From contig JAUNFS010000003.1 in NCBI GenBank assembly GCA_030524925.1, positions 2,146 to 66,145 of the forward strand: a stretch of DNA of 64,000 bases. The letters run 5' to 3'. The position numbers and the translations under genes were made by a program. Positions 15,024-22,266 of the stretch are shown piece by piece (the stretch's first letter is position 1; the number at the start of each line of letters is the position of its first letter). The notes under the pieces are model-generated. The model was not told where the DNA came from and ran no database searches. It saw only the letters and a list, made by a program, of their open reading frames with translations. The DNA comes from a bacterium. GTDB taxonomy: Bacteria > Bacillota_I > Bacilli_A > RF39 > UBA660.

Positions 15024-15100
15024 GGATCTTTAGCTCAGTTGGTTAGAGCATCCGGCTCATAACCGGGCGGTCGTAGGTTCGAGTCCTACAAGATCCACCA
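15024..15100 (+). tRNA. tRNA with CAT anticodon (Met, or Ile2 if lysidine-modified), CCA encoded
   Basis: GGATCTTTAGCTCAGTTGGTTAGAGCATCCGGCTCATAACCGGGCGGTCGTAGGTTCGAGTCCTACAAGATCCACCA. Cloverleaf pairs by eye (acceptor GGATCTT/AAGATCC, anticodon stem CCGG..CCGG, T-arm GTAGG/CCTAC). The body resembles Bacillus tRNA-Ile2(CAU). Confidence 0.9.
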
Positions 15101-15109
15101 TTTTTATTT

Positions 15110-15194
15110 GCGGGTGTGGCGGAACTGGCAGACGCGCTAGACTTAGGATCTAGTGGATTAATCCGTGCAGGTTCAAGTCCTGTCACCCGCACCA
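15110..15194 (+). tRNA. tRNA-Leu (TAG anticodon), long variable arm, CCA encoded
   Basis: GCGGGTGTGGCGGAACTGGCAGACGCGCTAGACTTAGGATCTAGTGGATTAATCCGTGCAGGTTCAAGTCCTGTCACCCGCACCA. 85 nt class II tRNA. Confidence 0.9.
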
Positions 15195-15303
15195 ATTTGT
15201 TTATATACGAACATTACTTATTATTTAGGTGGGTTCGCTACTTATAAATCATTAAAATAGTGTTCGTTAGAACATTATTTTTTTGTTTCTGGGAGGTTTT
15301 GTT

Positions 15304-15969
15304 ATGAAAAGAAGTAAAATTATTATTGAGTTAATTAAGAATGAAATAAGTGTCGTACAAGCAATGGATATTTTAAATTTGTTATTACAAGATATAACGG
15401 ATAAAAAAATAAAGAAATGGCTCTATTGTGAAATTAATGGCTATAATGTTAAAGATAAAGTACCAGAATATAGAATTGTTAAGACTAATTTAAAAGGAAA
15501 TTTTGTTGCTGGCAATTATAAGTGCACAAGCCAAGATATTCCTTTAAAGCCACAATACATTAAAGATTATGCTACTACTAAAATCACTGCTAGCATATAT
15601 GAAATATCACAATTTGCAATAGCCGAGAAAGAAAATAAAAGTCATTCTCTAATAATACCTTTACACGCAGTTATAGCACAAGAGATATCAATGATAAATG
15701 GCGAAGTTATTAGTGCATATAGAGAATTACCACTATATTCACATACGAATATATTAAACAAAATAAAATCAAAATTATTACAAATATTTATTGAGTTAGA
15801 AAAAAAATACGGCAATTTAGATGGTTATTATATTGAATTTGCTAATGATAAAAAAGGAAAAGAAGTGGTTAAAGATATTACAAACATAATATATACGGAT
15901 AATTCGGTACACATAGGCGATGATAACAAGATAGAAAAATCAAATGTAGGTGTTGCAAATGAAAATTAA
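15304..15969 (+). CDS. AbiTii-like abortive-infection protein
   Basis: From ATG 15304, preceded by GGGAGG. N-terminal ...VVQAMDILNLLL...KIKKWLYCEINGYNVKDKVPEYRIVK matches the (W..ELNGY..VPxYR) AbiTii pattern. Asn-rich repeat tail. Confidence 0.55.
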   Translation: MKRSKIIIELIKNEISVVQAMDILNLLLQDITDKKIKKWLYCEINGYNVKDKVPEYRIVKTNLKGNFVAGNYKCTSQDIPLKPQYIKDYATTKITASIYEISQFAIAEKENKSHSLIIPLHAVIAQEISMINGEVISAYRELPLYSHTNILNKIKSKLLQIFIELEKKYGNLDGYYIEFANDKKGKEVVKDITNIIYTDNSVHIGDDNKIEKSNVGVANEN

Positions 15970-16123
15970 AATTGGAAATGGAAATAAAATCAAAAATTCT
16001 AATGTAGGCAAAAATAACAAAATTGAAAGCGAACAAACACCAAATAAAATTTTAATAGATATTTTAGTTGGTCTATTCATAACAATAGTTGGTGGGATAA
16101 TTCTATATTTCATAACAAATTAA
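15959..16123 (+). CDS. 54-aa ORF: repeat continuation plus TM helix, probably the frameshifted C-terminus of the AbiTii-like gene
   Basis: Own translation: MKIKIGNGNKIKNSNVGKNNKIESEQTPNKILIDILVGLFITIVGGIILYFITN. Repeats the IGxxNKIxxSNVG unit of the upstream ORF in the next frame. Confidence 0.4.
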   Translation: MKIKIGNGNKIKNSNVGKNNKIESEQTPNKILIDILVGLFITIVGGIILYFITN

Positions 16124-16140
16124 AACGATTAGTTTGTTTT

Positions 16141-16383
16141 CTAATCGTTTTCTTTTTTTATTAAATCATCTAATGTAACACCTAAAGCAACAGATATTCT
16201 ATAAAAGGTATCAACAGAAAAGTTATAACCGGCTTTATCACTTTGAATTTGTCTTATAAAATCGTGAGATAAATCTACCATTTCAGCAAGTTGCATTGAT
16301 GTTATGTTTTTTTCTTTTCTATATTTTCTAATGTTCTTTCTAATGGTATCGTAGATGTTGGCATCAAAAATTAATTTTTCCAT
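16141..16383 (-). CDS. XRE-family helix-turn-helix transcriptional regulator
   Basis: KNITSMQLAEMVDLSHDFIRQIQS HTH. 80 aa. AGGAGG SD. Confidence 0.8.
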   Translation of the reverse strand: MEKLIFDANIYDTIRKNIRKYRKEKNITSMQLAEMVDLSHDFIRQIQSDKAGYNFSVDTFYRISVALGVTLDDLIKKEND

Positions 16384-16397
16384 AATGTTATCTACCT

Positions 16398-16440
16398 CCT
16401 AACATAATTTTAAAGAAATATATCCAAAAAATATGTTAGG
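16398..16440. promoter_or_regulatory. 9-bp inverted repeat (CCTAACATA / TATGTTAGG), candidate operator
   Basis: Left arm overlaps the SD of the XRE gene. Right arm abuts the -35 of the rightward promoter. Confidence 0.35.
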
Positions 16441-16442
16441 TA

Positions 16443-16471
16443 TTGACTAACAACGATGTATGTGATAAAAT
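16443..16471 (+). promoter_or_regulatory. candidate promoter for the 200-aa membrane protein gene
   Basis: TTGACT-N17-TAAAAT. Confidence 0.45.
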
Positions 16472-16506
16472 TAAGTTATCATTAATAATATGATTTTATA
16501 TATGTT

Positions 16507-17109
16507 GTGAGGTGTTTAAAGGTGAAAAAATTCGGTAATATACTAATTGATATTGTATTGGTACTAGCATTTATAATAACTTGTGCTGGTACATTTGCAG
16601 AAAAAAGTGTTGGTTTTGGTGTTGCCACGATAATTATTATTGTATTGTTTATTTTAAATCTTAAAAAAGGTAATCAAGTTGTAGATAGTAAAGAAGTAAA
16701 AGATTTAGATGCTAAATATACAAATAGCAGTTGGCAAAAAATTGGAAGTTATGAAAATGCTTATCTATATATCAACGAAAATGATAAGAAAGTATTAATT
16801 AACAATCACGAATACAATTTTAAAGATATAATTTCTGCCGAAATAATGGAAAATGAAAAAGAACAAACATATACTGCAACAACTCAAAATGCTATATTCA
16901 CAAGGTCTTATAGTAGTGGTTCAAGAACTTATCATTATTGCAGTAAATTACAAGTAAAAATCGTTCTAAATTCAATAACTAGTCCACAAGAATATATTAC
17001 TTTTATAAGTAAAAAGACAAATAAAAATAGTAATAAATATAAAAGTGCTTATGATATGGCACAAAAATTCATATCAACTTTGCAAGTTATTATTAAGAAT
17101 AACCAATAA
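16507..17109 (+). CDS. two-TM membrane protein with C-terminal globular domain (element cargo)
   Basis: Two TM helices, then a ~130-aa soluble domain. Alternative GTG start at 16522 after GAGGTG. No family recognised. Confidence 0.5.
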   Translation: MRCLKVKKFGNILIDIVLVLAFIITCAGTFAEKSVGFGVATIIIIVLFILNLKKGNQVVDSKEVKDLDAKYTNSSWQKIGSYENAYLYINENDKKVLINNHEYNFKDIISAEIMENEKEQTYTATTQNAIFTRSYSSGSRTYHYCSKLQVKIVLNSITSPQEYITFISKKTNKNSNKYKSAYDMAQKFISTLQVIIKNNQ

Positions 17110-17140
17110 ATTAAGTCGTAAAGGCTTAATTTTTTAATTC

Positions 17141-17350
17141 TTATATATAAATGAAAATATATTTATCACTATTGTATTTATTAAAAATATAATCTTGAAG
17201 ATTTGCAATATTATTAAACTTTTTCCCTTTTTCTTCATAATTACTTATTATATACAAATTATTATTTCTAATTATAATGAATACTCCGGGATGCTTTTTA
17301 TCTAAAACTTTACTTTCTATTTTTGATATTCTTCTTTCTAGTGTATTCAT
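17141..17350 (-). CDS. hypothetical small protein (element)
   Basis: 69 aa. ATGA overlap with the upstream HTH gene. Confidence 0.4.
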   Translation of the reverse strand: MNTLERRISKIESKVLDKKHPGVFIIIRNNNLYIISNYEEKGKKFNNIANLQDYIFNKYNSDKYIFIYI

Positions 17351-17730
17351 TTTATATCAAGCCTTTCTTCTATATTATCAATTCTTTTTAATAATTCTAA
17401 TTGTTGATACTGCAAAATTCTATCTAATATAAAAGTAGATGCCTTTAATTGATTATTTTCATTTTCTGCATTATCAAGTATTGATAACAAATTATTTAGA
17501 GCCTTATCGCCTAAAGTATGCAATTTTATTTCTATACTTTGCAAGGCTTGTATTCTTAAATCAATTAATAGTTGTTTGAATACTGGGTCAGTTCGCCATC
17601 TATAAATTGTGTTTTCATCAACTCCAATTTTAGAGGCAACTACTTTGTTATTATCGCCAATTAAAAGTAAAGATAAAGCAGTTTGCTGTTTATCATTTAA
17701 TTTTTTAAAATTCTCTACAAAATTAGTCAT
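17347..17730 (-). CDS. small HTH protein (terminase-small-subunit-like / phBC6A51-type)
   Basis: LLLIGDNNKVVASKIGVDENTIYRWRTDPVFKQLL, an HTH followed by a coiled-coil tail. Confidence 0.5.
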   Translation of the reverse strand: MTNFVENFKKLNDKQQTALSLLLIGDNNKVVASKIGVDENTIYRWRTDPVFKQLLIDLRIQALQSIEIKLHTLGDKALNNLLSILDNAENENNQLKASTFILDRILQYQQLELLKRIDNIEERLDIK

Positions 17731-17784
17731 TTTCTATCATATCCTTTCATTAGTGTATTATTTGTAGAAAATGTAGTTATTGTA

Positions 17785-19521
17785 TTACTTTGTAATAATT
17801 ACATTATCTACACTTTCTACATTTACTACATTCTTTTTAATAGGTATTTTGTAAAAGACTTTTTGTCTTTCACTTTTTCCAGTTAGTTCGTTTTTAACTG
17901 GGTTTGGTGTTGTATAATAACCGATGCCATCATATTTCTTCAATAATGGTTTTATGGGGTCTAACATTGAATTTTTAACTTTATTATCTGCGAGGTTAGA
18001 ATATAATTTTTGCAGTTCTATTCCTAACTCTTTTAAACTACCAGCCCATTTTCCATTATTCTTGTTTACTAAAGTTTTTATAGTATCAACTAAAGGGTTA
18101 TTATTATATTCTTCTAATTCATTTCGCATCACTTTTTCTTCATAAGATGAAATCATCTGCCATTTACAACTTTCTTTATTGAAGTTTAAAATATATTGAT
18201 TTTGGTCTACATCTCTACCAGTAATAGATAAAATAGTTTCTTTATCGTATCTATTTTGTTTATCTAAAACTATTGTTGTATCAGCAGTACCAGTTATACC
18301 ATTTGTTCCGGATACTTTTCCAAAAACATCATTGTCATTGCCTTTTTTAAGATGATGTATTAAAATAATTGCCAAGCCATTTTCATCAGCAAAATCTTTA
18401 ATAGTTCCAACTTCTTTATAATCATTTGCATAATTGTTTTTTCCATTATAATCACTTCTAATTTTTTGAAGTGTATCTATTACTATAACCTTAATATAAG
18501 GTTCTTTTTTTATAATGCTTTTAATCTCATTAATTAAGCCATTTTCTATATCATCACACCTAGTTGCATAAATAAAATTATCTGGTGCTATTTTGCCATC
18601 TAATACCTTATTTAATCTGCTTTTAAGCCTATGTTCGCTATCTTCTAGTGCTAGATATAAGCATCCAGTTTTAAGTGTCTTAAAGCCTAAGAATGGCATA
18701 CCTTTACTAATACTTAAACATAAATCTAAAGCCATCCAACTTTTTCCTATTTTAGGTAAACTGCAAATTAAAGTAAGTCCTTGAGGTATTAAACTATCTA
18801 CATAAAATGTTATTGGTGGTAAATCTTTATCTTGTAATGATTTGGCAGTTGCATATTGAATATTATTTATCTTATCTTTATTTTTAATTTTATTAGTTTC
18901 TTTTTTTAGAGCACTTTTAACAATATTATTTAATTCTGCTTTTTTTAGTTTATCTTCAAAAACAATATTATTAATTATATTTGCTACATCTTTAATATTC
19001 ATTTCCGGATATGTTTCTTTTATTAATAATAGATGCTTATATAAATGGTTGTTTCTAGCATCACCATCAAGCATTCCAGTTAAATTATTTTTTGCTTTAT
19101 ATAATGGATAAAATTGCAATGGTAGTTCTGGTAAATTATCAATATTTAATTCTCTATTCATTTCTCTAGTTTTGCCATTTAATTTAATGACTGCATAGGC
19201 ATTTTTCCCGGTTAAATAATCACATTGAAAGCCTAAAACAGATATTACATCTGTGTTTCTTTTAAAACTATATCCAGTAGGCATTTTATAGTAGTAATGC
19301 TTTCCTTTAGTTGTTTTAACTCTTAAGGTGGGATAGTTTGCATCTATATAATCACATATTATATTTTCATTTATATTGTCATTGTCAAAATCTAAAACAA
19401 TTACATCATCACCAATAATAAGACCAGCATTTTCTAAATTATCAAAAGTAGTTTGATAGTATTGTTGGTTCATTGATTTAATATTAGGTGATTTATCATT
19501 TTTTAGTGGTATAAATTGCAT
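17785..19521 (-). CDS. replication protein: N-terminal Prim-Pol domain fused to RepA/AAA_25-type P-loop ATPase
   Basis: VLDFDND (DxD) and TTKGKHYYYK in the N-domain. Walker A SLPKIGKS. CLYLALEDS. Walker B VIVIDTLQKI. Confidence 0.75.
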   Translation of the reverse strand: MQFIPLKNDKSPNIKSMNQQYYQTTFDNLENAGLIIGDDVIVLDFDNDNINENIICDYIDANYPTLRVKTTKGKHYYYKMPTGYSFKRNTDVISVLGFQCDYLTGKNAYAVIKLNGKTREMNRELNIDNLPELPLQFYPLYKAKNNLTGMLDGDARNNHLYKHLLLIKETYPEMNIKDVANIINNIVFEDKLKKAELNNIVKSALKKETNKIKNKDKINNIQYATAKSLQDKDLPPITFYVDSLIPQGLTLICSLPKIGKSWMALDLCLSISKGMPFLGFKTLKTGCLYLALEDSEHRLKSRLNKVLDGKIAPDNFIYATRCDDIENGLINEIKSIIKKEPYIKVIVIDTLQKIRSDYNGKNNYANDYKEVGTIKDFADENGLAIILIHHLKKGNDNDVFGKVSGTNGITGTADTTIVLDKQNRYDKETILSITGRDVDQNQYILNFNKESCKWQMISSYEEKVMRNELEEYNNNPLVDTIKTLVNKNNGKWAGSLKELGIELQKLYSNLADNKVKNSMLDPIKPLLKKYDGIGYYTTPNPVKNELTGKSERQKVFYKIPIKKNVVNVESVDNVIITK

Positions 19522-19687
19522 CTTTTTTTATCCTTTCTTCATTATTGATTTTTTTCTTCTTTTCATCCTTGCTGGAAAGCCATTTTTTATATTCTTCTTT
19601 GTGATTATCAATATAGGTTGTTACATCATCAACTAAAATGCCAGAGGCAAATTCTTTTATTAGTTCATCACTAATCATAATTTTCAC
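19496..19687 (-). CDS. hypothetical small protein (element)
   Basis: 63 aa, overlaps neighbours on both sides in an operon-like way. Confidence 0.35.
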   Translation of the reverse strand: MKIMISDELIKEFASGILVDDVTTYIDNHKEEYKKWLSSKDEKKKKINNEERIKKDAIYTTKK

Positions 19688-19868
19688 CTGCTTTAATTAA
19701 CTCTTTGGCTTTCTTTTCCCAGAAAGTGGCATTGTGTTTTTTTACTTTATCTGGGTTATTCTTTCGCCAGTTTTTAAAATATAATTTTCTGGCATCATCA
19801 ATTTGCTTAGTTGAATATTTGTTAATAGCATTACTAAATTGTTTTTCATCATTTTTATTATTATTCAT
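19671..19868 (-). CDS. hypothetical small basic protein (element)
   Basis: ATG at 19868 follows AAAGGAGG; the track start 19886 lies upstream of the SD. Confidence 0.4.
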   Translation of the reverse strand: MNNNKNDEKQFSNAINKYSTKQIDDARKLYFKNWRKNNPDKVKKHNATFWEKKAKELIKAGENYD

Positions 19869-19905
19869 ACAAGAGCCTCCTTTCAAATTTTTTTCTTTTA
19901 TTTTC

Positions 19906-19934
19906 TTGCATTTTTTTGAAAAATGATATATTAT
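19906..19934 (+). promoter_or_regulatory. candidate rightward promoter of the element switch region
   Basis: TTGCAT-N17-TATTAT. Confidence 0.4.
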
Positions 19935-19938
19935 ATAA

Positions 19939-19968
19939 ATGTAAAAGTTATTTCCTTTTCTTTTACAT
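19939..19968. promoter_or_regulatory. 9-bp inverted repeat ATGTAAAAG-N12-CTTTTACAT, candidate operator
   Basis: Perfect arms, located between the two face-to-face candidate promoters. Confidence 0.35.
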
Positions 19969-19988
19969 AAGTGAAGTTTAACACAGAA

Positions 19989-20016
19989 ATTATAGAAAAG
20001 GGATAAAAATATACAA
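19989..20016 (-). promoter_or_regulatory. candidate leftward promoter for the replication operon
   Basis: Minus strand TTGTAT-N16-TATAAT. Confidence 0.4.
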
Positions 20017-20070
20017 AAAAAAATATTTGTTAATTTTGATAAATAAATTTCACAAAAAGGAAGGATAATT

Positions 20071-20658
20071 ATGGAAAGAAAAGAGAGAGAAAAAAATCAT
20101 ATTGACCCAGAAGTTATTAAAGAAAATGTTAATAATACAAAATATACAAATGACATTAAGCAAATGTTATTGTGCTTTTCATTAGAACTTAATAGGTTGC
20201 TATATAAAAAAGAAATAAGTCAAGAAGATTTTTCTAAAATAACAAAAATAGGTCAAACAAGTATTTCTAAATATAGAAATGGTACTGCACTACCAAAACA
20301 AGAAAATATTGATATTATTGCAAAGGCTCTTGGAGTATCAAGTGAATATTTAGTTGGTAAAAGCAAAACAAAAGACTATTCATATAATCAATTAAATAAA
20401 TTATTTGGCTTTAATGATGAAACAATTAATAATCTTTCAAGTTGTTTTAACAAAGACTATCTAAATAATATGTTTGGTGGTGAATTAGATAGTATTAATT
20501 ACTTTCTTGAAAGACTAAAAAATTATGTTGATGCCAAAAATGAATATAAAAAAGAAAAAAAGGAATTAAACAAGGCTTGGGATAAAAATAAAATTGATGA
20601 GGCTAAATATTATTTAACAAATTCACTAATTGATTTAATAGATGAAAATTTAAAATAG
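20071..20658 (+). CDS. XRE-family HTH regulator (repressor-like) with C-terminal extension
   Basis: ISQEDFSKITKIGQTSISKYRNGTALPKQENIDIIAKALGVSSEYLVG. AGGAAGGA SD. Confidence 0.75.
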   Translation: MERKEREKNHIDPEVIKENVNNTKYTNDIKQMLLCFSLELNRLLYKKEISQEDFSKITKIGQTSISKYRNGTALPKQENIDIIAKALGVSSEYLVGKSKTKDYSYNQLNKLFGFNDETINNLSSCFNKDYLNNMFGGELDSINYFLERLKNYVDAKNEYKKEKKELNKAWDKNKIDEAKYYLTNSLIDLIDENLK

Positions 20659-20673
20659 AAAGGAGTTTATATT

Positions 20674-22218
20674 ATGAATATTGCACTTTATTTAAGATAT
20701 AGTTCACAAAATCAAACAGAGGCATCTATTGAGGGACAAAGAGAGGTTTGCCAAGAATATGCCAGAGTAAAAAAATATAATATTATATGCGAATATATTG
20801 ACAGAGCCCACTCGGCTACAACAGATAATCGCCCAGAATTCAAAAGAATGATTAAAGATAGTTCTAAAGGTTTATTTGATGCAGTAGTAGTTTATCAATT
20901 TGATAGATTTGCAAGAAATAGATTAGATAGTCAAAAATATAAACAACTTTTAAAGAAAAATAATGTAATGGTTTTATCTGCTCGTGAGGAAATACCAGAA
21001 GATGCTTCTGGTATACTTATGGAAAGTGTTTTAGAGGGGATGGCAGAATATTATAGTGTTGAGTTAGGACAAAAGGTTTCTCGTGGAATGAAAACAAATG
21101 CCAGTAAATGCTATTATAATGGTGGTTCAGTTCCTTTAGGTTTAAAACTAGAGGTTGTAGAAAAAATACAAACATCTGGTAAAATAAAAGAAAAAAAGAA
21201 ATTTGTTATTGATGAAGAAAAAGCCTCTATTATAAAAACTATATTTGAAAAATTTAACAAAGGCGAAAGTATGATTAAAATTATAAATTATCTAAATAAA
21301 TTAGGCATTAAAACAAGCAAAAATAAGCCATTTAATAAAAATAGTATGAGAAGAATATTAGAAAATAAAAAGTATATTGGTATCTATTCTTATGATGGTG
21401 TAGATACTCCAGATGCTATTCCAAGAATAATTAGTGATGATTTATTTTATAAAGTACAAGATAAACTTGGCAAATATAGATGTGCTCCCGGTAGACAAAA
21501 AGCCAGAACGGAATATCTTTTAACAACTAAATTATTCTGTGGTTATTGTGAAAATATGATGGTTGGTGTTGCCGGTACTTCTAAAAATGGTACATTGCAT
21601 AATTACTATACTTGTAAGGGCAGAAAAACTTGTGGATGCAAAAAAGCCAATATCAAGAAAATATACATTGAGGATATAGTTGTAGATATGGCAAGAGAGG
21701 TCTTGACAGATAAAGAAATACCTATTATTGCTAAAAATGTGGTTGAATATGCAGAAAGCCACGATAACAGCGATTTAAAATATTTGCAAGATAAATTAAA
21801 AAATTTAAACAAACAAAATGAAAGTTTAACTAATAGTTTGAAATATTGTGAAGTTGATGCTGTAAGAAAAACAATTATTGATGAAATGACAAAAATTGAA
21901 AATGAAAAAATAAATACTCTTGAGGCAATTAAAGAAGAAGAAAAAAATCATACTTATATTGAATATGACAAAGTAGTATATTTTCTAGAACAAATGAGAA
22001 AAGGCGATATAAACGATATGAGGTATAGACAAAGACTTATAAATTGCTTTATTAATAAGGTGTTCTTATGGGATGATAAAATTATTACTACTTTTAATAT
22101 TAAAAAAAGTGATATTTCTACTAAATTGCCTAATTTAAAAGACTTGGAGTGTTCGTTTGAAGTTTCAAATGGTGCACCATTGATAAATTTGTTCGGACTA
22201 TTCGGACTTTATATATAG
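20674..22218 (+). CDS. large serine recombinase (resolvase/invertase N-domain, recombinase domain, zinc ribbon, coiled coil)
   Basis: IALYLRYSSQNQ...IEGQ catalytic Ser region. VVVYQFDRFARN. CGYC...YYTCKGRKTCGC zinc ribbon. 514 aa. Confidence 0.9.
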   Translation: MNIALYLRYSSQNQTEASIEGQREVCQEYARVKKYNIICEYIDRAHSATTDNRPEFKRMIKDSSKGLFDAVVVYQFDRFARNRLDSQKYKQLLKKNNVMVLSAREEIPEDASGILMESVLEGMAEYYSVELGQKVSRGMKTNASKCYYNGGSVPLGLKLEVVEKIQTSGKIKEKKKFVIDEEKASIIKTIFEKFNKGESMIKIINYLNKLGIKTSKNKPFNKNSMRRILENKKYIGIYSYDGVDTPDAIPRIISDDLFYKVQDKLGKYRCAPGRQKARTEYLLTTKLFCGYCENMMVGVAGTSKNGTLHNYYTCKGRKTCGCKKANIKKIYIEDIVVDMAREVLTDKEIPIIAKNVVEYAESHDNSDLKYLQDKLKNLNKQNESLTNSLKYCEVDAVRKTIIDEMTKIENEKINTLEAIKEEEKNHTYIEYDKVVYFLEQMRKGDINDMRYRQRLINCFINKVFLWDDKIITTFNIKKSDISTKLPNLKDLECSFEVSNGAPLINLFGLFGLYI

Positions 22219-22245
22219 AATCAATCGCATGATTGATTTTTTTTT
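22219..22245 (+). terminator. rho-independent terminator after the recombinase gene
   Basis: AATCAATC-GCAT-GATTGATT followed by T7. Confidence 0.6.
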
Positions 22246-22266
22246 ATAAAACGAAAAAATCATGAA

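Follow-up and report, generated by a model that had tools for sequence, protein, structure and literature searches.

A conserved AbiTii-domain gene and an overlapping gene for a small membrane peptide bearing the same motif: a probable two-gene abortive-infection cassette

When a putative defence gene appears to be interrupted by a change of reading frame, is it one damaged gene or two intact ones? The question is raised by positions 15304-16123 of the 64,000-nucleotide stretch of bacterial DNA analysed here (the window), in which an AbiTii-like open reading frame is followed, one frame over, by a short frame encoding a hydrophobic segment. The initial annotation described a gene split by a 1-nt frameshift and offered three readings: a recently inactivated gene, a sequencing indel, or a deliberate two-part pair of sensor and membrane effector. 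We conclude with high confidence that the two frames constitute a conserved, co-transcribed and translationally coupled two-gene cassette rather than one broken gene. In our opinion, the best explanation overall, and a probable one, is that the cassette serves abortive infection and consists of an AbiTii sensor and a membrane-peptide effector linked by a motif that both carry.

The upstream gene, ORF1 (15304-15969, + strand; ATG at 15304, TAA at 15967-15969), encodes a 221-aa AbiTii-domain protein that has no transmembrane (TM) segment and ends in ...HIGDDNKIEKSNVGVANEN. A Shine-Dalgarno element, GGGAGG, can be read in the sequence 7 nt 5' of its ATG (15291-15296, +). The AbiTii domain occupies residues 6-184 (15319-15855, +; Pfam PF18864, E 4.3e-24, 86.2 bits against a curated cut-off of 27.6), and the PADLOC model AbiTii (PDLC02334) matches the same protein with an E-value of 4.6e-23. 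These profile matches place ORF1 in the AbiTii domain family. The AF2 model of residues 1-200 is a mixture of helices and strands with pLDDT values above 83, mostly above 90, and a block mean of at least 91 over residues 1-170. Fold and sequence searches against the PDB gave no significant match (best Foldseek E 0.64, best HMM E 0.36), and the fold is therefore silent on function.

The downstream gene, ORF2 (15959-16123, +; ATG at 15959, TAA at 16121-16123), lies in the +1 frame relative to ORF1 and encodes the 54-aa peptide MKIKIGNGNKIKNSNVGKNNKIESEQTPNKILIDILVGLFITIVGGIILYFITN. From its start to the ORF1 stop, the two genes overlap by 11 nt (ATGAAAATTAA, 15959-15969, +), and a Shine-Dalgarno-like AGGTG (15948-15952, +) is found 6 nt 5' of its ATG. 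Thus, the positions of the two frames, the AbiTii-like nature of the first and the presence of a separate ATG within its end, as given in the initial annotation, are all borne out. An 18-residue motif rich in Asn and Lys, IGxxNKIxxSN[VI]Gxxxxx, occurs once in each protein, forming the C-terminus of ORF1 and lying at the N-terminus of ORF2. Copy 1 (IGDDNKIEKSNVGVANEN, 15913-15966, +) comprises the last 18 residues of ORF1, and copy 2 (IGNGNKIKNSNVGKNNKI, 15971-16024, +), which begins 58 nt past the start of copy 1, comprises residues 5-22 of ORF2, immediately after MKIK.

Residues 31-52 of ORF2 form a predicted TM helix (ILIDILVGLFITIVGGIILYFI, 16049-16114, +). The prediction of a single such helix comes both from hydropathy (the segment ILIDILVGLFITIVGGIIL has a 19-residue Kyte-Doolittle mean of 2.76) and from AF2, in which the segment is a confidently modelled helix at 247-271 of a virtual fusion; it agrees with the C-terminal TM helix that had been proposed for the second frame. 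The virtual fusion is the continuous 272-aa chain, AbiTii...VANENKIGNGNKIKNSNVG...TM, obtained by a four-base step at the ORF1 stop, and its existence confirms the earlier remark that a one-base change yields a continuous TM protein. The N-terminal 30 residues of ORF2 carry a net charge of +5, from which it follows that the ORF2 motif should face the cytoplasm, the side on which the soluble ORF1 resides. Directly 3' of ORF2 lies an intrinsic terminator with an 11-bp stem and a T run (16122-16160, +), which is bidirectional and shared with a convergent XRE gene (16141-16383); the terminator scan found 2 terminators as against 0.2 expected in shuffles, and none was found between ORF1 and ORF2.

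No Pfam family matches ORF2 above its cut-off, and none was found in NCBIfam or PADLOC. The best match, and the only significant one, is between 15959-16120 and phrog_31700, a 47-position model with no assigned function (E 5.8e-7), indicating that similar motif-TM peptides exist in phage genomes. A match to the holin family phrog_689 (E 0.046) is not significant.

Evidence that the split is not accidental comes from its conservation. A word-indexed search retrieved 65 relatives of ORF1 at 38-94% identity, nearly all of which are 220-225 aa long and end in ...NEN. In an alignment of 23 ORF1 relatives, the C-terminus ...IGDxNKIxxSN[VI]GxxNEN is kept through the last residue; G205, I210 and G216 are invariant across these 23 sequences, as are E43, E108 and E166, each a candidate for the glutamate published for this domain. 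A scan of species-representative genomes identified 13 related loci, 11 of them with a full-length gene (35-87% identity), in uncultured Bacilli, a 'Mycoplasma sp.' MAG, Clostridia, Erysipelotrichaceae and three Saccharibacteria. In the window and in all 11 full-length loci (12/12), the ORF2 ATG precedes the ORF1 stop by exactly 8 nt. The +1 frame of all 11 reads M[KR]IxIGNxNKIKNSNIG, followed by a polar linker and a TM helix, while the third frame at this position is full of stops. The ORF1 stop codon itself differs among loci, being TAA, TGA or TAG; what is conserved is therefore the position of the stop and not one particular mutation.

A TAGG[T/A/C]G pattern precedes the ORF2 ATG in 12/12 loci, and the same bases supply both a TAG in the ORF2 frame and the Shine-Dalgarno-like element, which appears across loci as AGGTG or AGGAG, 6-7 nt 5' of the ATG. 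Because the TAG, three codons before the ATG, closes the ORF2 frame in every locus, ORF2 can start only there. Pairwise dN/dS values for ORF2, computed with the overlap excluded, range from 0.03 to 0.38, with dS mostly above 0.6 and near saturation; the values for ORF1 are 0.06-0.30. These ratios indicate purifying selection on ORF2. In 20 clusters, ORF2 homologues appear as separately called genes of 50-59 aa. Moreover, in independent NCBI, ENA and Logan assemblies, the exact 221-aa ORF1 occurs on 6 contigs and the exact 54-aa ORF2 on 13, and variants more than 90% identical to them, always of 221 and 54 aa, occur on 128 and 165 contigs, respectively.

It should be noted that alternative genetic code 4 was considered and rejected. 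Reading through TGA lengthens the TGA-ending ORF1 genes by only about 4 residues; the ORF1 stop in the window is TAA, and TGA closes 6 of the 55 long open reading frames in the window, so that code 4 is irrelevant at this locus.

The two-gene arrangement extends beyond the close relatives. Two more distant loci, L015 and L016, encode AbiTii proteins with about 25% identity to ORF1, and in both a small motif-and-TM gene lies directly downstream. The junction of L015 is a 14-nt overlap into the +1 frame, and that of L016 is TAATG, into the other frame. Three different junctions, including that of the window clade, cannot be accounted for by one frameshift, and a two-gene architecture fits all of them. 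In L015 (2142-3365, -) and L016 (40-1464, +), the AbiTii/TM-peptide pair lies immediately 3' of an Eco57I-type restriction-modification methylase gene. The distribution of the module is patchy: of 400 genomes of the phylum searched with the Pfam AbiTii model, 3 have a match above the cut-off, those of L015 and L016 among them, and none of the 16 genomes of the family to which the source organism belongs has one.

The pair heads the cargo of an element of about 7 kb in the window (15195-22260), which lies between tRNA-Leu and a large serine recombinase (20674-22218). The left boundary is marked by two tRNA genes identified with ARAGORN, tRNA-Met (15024-15100, +) and tRNA-Leu(TAG) (15110-15194, +). 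Other genes of the island include a Prim-Pol/AAA_25 replicase and two XRE regulators, whereas genes for phage structural proteins are absent. A gene at 16507-17109 (+), oriented divergently from the XRE gene at 16141-16383, encodes a 200-aa protein whose N-terminal part contains two hydrophobic segments; the protein has no match in Pfam or PADLOC and could be further cargo of the island. Neither AbiTi nor any other known defence partner was found near the window pair.

Comparison of 14 related loci indicates that the AbiTii gene is the only open reading frame of at least 70 aa in common with the window neighbourhood; ORF2, which falls below this size cut-off, is also conserved in the full-length loci. 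The flanks differ by locus and include a T4SS coupling protein, a TrbL-like gene, Fic/DOC, Eco57I-type methylases, resolvase fragments and housekeeping genes. These comparisons show the AbiTii/ORF2 pair to be an autonomous cassette. A tblastn search with ORF1 gave no match in the INPHARED phage collection, and IMG/VR contains one distant relative; the module is not typically phage-borne.

Several neighbourhoods deserve mention in their own right. At L009, a 298-aa Fic/DOC-family gene (1270-2166) lies directly 5' of the AbiTii gene and overlaps its start, and a 298-aa open reading frame occupies the matching position in L010 (3097-3993) and L012 (3097-3993); a three-gene arrangement of Fic/DOC and the AbiTii pair is thus possible in these Saccharibacteria. 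On the Enterococcus faecium plasmid pDY32-optrA (NZ_MW207675.1; L019, 1501-2698), an AbiTii-like gene of 208 aa and 27% identity overlaps by 8 nt a gene for a 192-aa 'hypothetical protein' composed of an N-terminal TM helix and a soluble domain and lacking the shared motif, and this pairing of AbiTii with a membrane protein is repeated on 8 other E. faecium plasmids. On a Lactococcus lactis plasmid (NZ_CP129293.1; L020, 1501-2400), a 299-aa AbiTii-domain protein has a helical C-terminal extension of about 90 residues that closes with a hydrophobic tail, and adjoins a TIR-domain protein and an Fst-type type I toxin.

What the two proteins have in common is the motif. In an 89-row MAFFT alignment, the N-terminal motif of each ORF2 homologue is aligned onto the C-terminal motif of ORF1, with I210 and G216 invariant, in agreement with the observation that the IGxxNKIxxSNVG unit continues on both sides of the frame change in the window. 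As judged from the aligned copies, the repetition across ORF1 and ORF2 exceeds chance. Copies from the same locus resemble each other more than copies from different loci, with a mean identity of 8.1 versus 7.2 of 15 positions in 13 related loci (permutation p = 0.003) and of 8.75 versus 7.09 of 15 in 8 clade representatives (exact permutation p = 0.0003), a co-variation among related, not independent, loci that fits a co-evolving homotypic contact and also gene conversion between the DNA copies. The same tendency is apparent between clades: L015 and L016 share N[LIF]A[GE] across their two copies, where the window clade has N[VI]G in each.

Structure prediction gave no folded or paired motif in the virtual fusion: the motif region (201-246) has pLDDT values below 50 and contains no strands, in a model for which MAFFT had placed the ORF2 motifs onto that of ORF1, leaving the second copy without alignment depth in the composite input. 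An identity with left-handed beta-helix or hexapeptide-repeat proteins was likewise considered for the repeat and rejected, since LbH_EIF2B scores 18.3 bits on the virtual fusion, against a cut-off of 54, and no strands are modelled.

An exhaustive AbiTii profile search gave 2747 representative clusters at E <= 0.001, and the best 150 of these 2747 were classed by form. The majority (118) are short proteins of 205-239 aa that end just past one motif copy; 8 are single-chain AbiTii proteins with a C-terminal TM helix, 14 have longer tails, several of which close with basic amphipathic segments such as KKGFWSWFKRIFGKNN, and 10 are fragments of fewer than 205 aa. In a set of AbiTii proteins of 253-286 aa (P0157, P0161, P0187, P0188, P0193, P0204 and P0208), several degenerate motif copies are followed by a short basic amphipathic segment of this kind and not by a TM helix; these tails may bind the membrane peripherally.

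One natural fused protein, P0094 (254 aa), can be aligned over its whole length to the virtual fusion of the window (33% identity), its TM helix LLIPLIITVVGGIIV being aligned with the corresponding segment of ORF2. The sole gap in this alignment is 19 residues long and corresponds to exactly one motif copy. On this comparison, the split pair amounts to the fused form plus a duplicated motif: fused chains have one copy, and split pairs have one per protein. Since natural chains have a single copy, the two-copy 272-aa chain made by 'repair' is not the form found in nature.

A quick maximum-likelihood tree of AbiTii domains, rooted at its midpoint without an outgroup, places the window in a clade (SH-aLRT 98, 19 rows) that contains split or short forms only. 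All fused forms fall in another clade (SH-aLRT 100, 40 rows), where they are scattered among short forms and imply at least 4 changes; fusion or fission has therefore happened repeatedly. The initial annotation had proposed that alignment to homologues would tell whether the fused or the split form is ancestral; with the midpoint root and the scatter of fused forms, the tree is compatible with either order for the family as a whole.

A decayed locus provides a natural example of the halves joined again. L011 (CAJUGF010000004.1, 3614-4321) encodes a 235-aa chimera in which the N-terminus of a serine recombinase is joined to AbiTii residues 147-219. Here, the ORF1 motif passes directly and in frame into the ORF2 linker and TM helix (...IESSNVG-INNKIEKDES...FVAVVGGIILYFIT), a re-fusion that corresponds to the loss of 58 nt between the motif copies (window 15940 versus 15998). 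One repeat period (3n+1 nt) is the exact offset between the ORF1 and ORF2 frames. Two proteins, P0064 and P0065, group with the L011 chimera; P0064 is the same chimera in split form, ending in ...SNIGVNSEN, and the L011 deletion is therefore secondary. L011 shows that the two DNA copies of the motif can recombine.

These observations allow the single-gene explanations to be weighed. An extra T interrupting what was one AbiTii-TM gene, whether through recent inactivation or an assembly indel, would account for the fact that a one-base deletion restores the frame across the repeated motif in an A/T-rich run. It would not account for a split that is present in all relatives down to 35% identity and closed by three different stop codons, for purifying selection on ORF2, or for the many independent assemblies of identical proteins, and we consider its probability negligible; the first two readings offered in the initial annotation are therefore set aside. 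A 1-nt frameshift is thus contradicted as a recent event and is conceivable only as an ancient one in the window clade, given the junctions of L015 and L016.

A programmed +1 ribosomal frameshift at the ORF1 stop, regulated as in prfB and yielding the 272-aa AbiTii-motif-motif-TM fusion, is another single-product explanation. A +1 step at this stop does open the fusion frame, the overlap geometry is strictly conserved in the window clade, and single-chain AbiTii-TM relatives exist. Nevertheless, the pre-stop codon varies (AAT, CAT or CAC), as does the next base, with no conserved slippery site at which a P-site tRNA could re-pair in the +1 frame. The ATG of ORF2 and its AGGTG/AGGAG element are conserved in 12/12 loci; the L016 pair is joined in the other frame through TAATG; and natural fusions have one motif copy, not two. 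For these reasons, a programmed frameshift is, in our judgement, very improbable. The third reading, a deliberate two-part pair, is the one supported by the conserved two-gene architecture, its function being a matter of analogy.

How might the two-gene cassette work? Domain homology and genomic context make a role in defence somewhat the likelier assignment. By analogy with other AbiTii proteins, ORF1 would be a soluble cytoplasmic phage sensor or regulator, and ORF2, which uses an ATG of its own, would be a tail-anchored membrane peptide acting as the effector. The motif copies of the two proteins would pair, either tethering the sensor to the peptide or allowing the sensor to restrain it. 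Upon infection, the ORF2 peptide would be released or would cluster, the membrane would be damaged and the infection would be aborted. The single-chain AbiTii/motif/TM relatives would do the same in one polypeptide, and the split lineage would have duplicated the motif, each half keeping one copy. That coupling is mediated by the motif and that ORF2 is the killing component is, in our estimate, slightly short of an even chance.

Within the two-gene interpretation, the main rival accepts the pair but reduces ORF2 to a membrane anchor or localisation factor for the AbiTii protein, killing being done by the AbiTii domain or by an unlinked host factor. It is consistent with the lack of a recognisable toxic domain in ORF2, whose holin match is not significant, and with the basic amphipathic tails that replace the TM helix in some relatives, as would befit membrane attachment. 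However, no other conserved gene travels with the pair, and in type I toxin-antitoxin systems a small peptide with a single TM helix suffices as the toxin. In other AbiTii architectures, moreover, the effector is the partner or fused domain, HEPN or AbiTi (PMC3710099), and the AbiTi of Coprococcus catus is toxic (PMC3985639). We regard a purely anchoring role as unlikely and prefer ORF2 as the effector.

A further proposal, which we put forward tentatively, is that the 18-residue motif recognises itself and acts as an adaptor, rebuilding a sensor and a membrane effector non-covalently after they have been split. Fission would then be viable through duplication of the linker motif, and repeat-mediated deletion of 58 nt, as in L011, could fuse the halves again. 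If this is true, defence proteins would have a simple and general means of splitting and re-joining, and the motif would be a minimal peptide tag coupling a cytoplasmic sensor to a membrane-killing peptide.

There are also practical implications. The AbiTii-domain family is large, as the number of clusters recovered by the profile search illustrates, and current annotation names the AbiTii gene alone. A membrane peptide as a regular partner provides a testable effector for this branch of the family, and recognition of ORF2 keeps such loci from being mis-annotated as frameshifted pseudogenes. The locus is, in addition, a compact natural example of the split and fused versions of one sensor-effector unit.

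Several known systems offer points of comparison. RexA/RexB of phage lambda, the TM effectors of CBASS and Pycsar, and CRISPR Cam1 combine a cytoplasmic sensor with a membrane protein proposed to collapse the membrane potential and abort infection. RexB is a multi-pass channel protein, whereas ORF2 is predicted to be a single tail-anchored helix, and the likeness is one of mechanistic analogy; of the systems compared, the window pair would work most like RexAB and the CBASS TM effectors. In the EAD concept of the Aravind laboratory, the same short module reportedly occurs on the core protein and on a separate effector of NTPase conflict systems, and homotypic recruitment has been proposed. Unlike EAD pairs, the window pair has no NTPase, and its module is an 18-residue low-complexity motif rather than a folded Death-like domain.

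Lactococcal AbiT is a two-component abortive-infection system consisting of AbiTi and AbiTii (Bouchard et al. 2002, as cited in PMC13064643 and PMC3985639). It requires both genes, and the mutations by which phages escape it lie in the major capsid protein and in early genes (PMC13064643). The lactococcal AbiTi and AbiTii are non-toxic, while in the Coprococcus catus homologue AbiTi is toxic in E. coli and is not counteracted by AbiTii (PMC3985639). The window pair resembles this system in having an AbiTii protein of about 210-220 aa that is bicistronic with a small partner and located on mobile DNA; in AbiT, the partner AbiTi is the toxic or effector component. The window differs in that AbiTi is absent, a tRNA lies upstream, and no neighbour matches the PADLOC models of the AbiT system (AbiTi, AbiTii); the lack of AbiTi places the locus outside the lactococcal AbiT system. 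The partner in the window is instead encoded downstream with an 11-nt overlap and is a 54-aa TM peptide that has the 18-residue motif in common with the AbiTii protein, whereas AbiTi is a 127-aa RNase-like protein. Among the papers searched, the passages on AbiT or AbiTii describe no membrane partner.

The AbiTii domain is an alpha+beta module that occurs N-terminal to HEPN RNases or beside AbiTi (PMC3710099; for the pairing with AbiTi, also PMC13064643), and it has been proposed to be the phage-interacting part of its systems (PMC3710099). Like the AbiTii-HEPN fusions of the c2405 and Ymh families (Anantharaman et al. 2013, PMC3710099), the window pair would combine an N-terminal AbiTii alpha+beta domain with an effector, that is, a sensor with a swappable effector. 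AbiTii is the only Pfam family above cut-off on ORF1 and on the virtual fusion, with no C-terminal HEPN; the putative effector of the window is a TM helix or peptide, which in this clade is a separate polypeptide. Further counterparts are single-chain AbiTii-motif-TM proteins such as P0094, P0172, P0196 and P0199. Their AbiTii domain and their TM helix, which contains GG, are homologous to those of the window pair, and the motif is the same; unlike the window pair, they are built as one polypeptide with one motif copy and all belong to a different clade of the tree.
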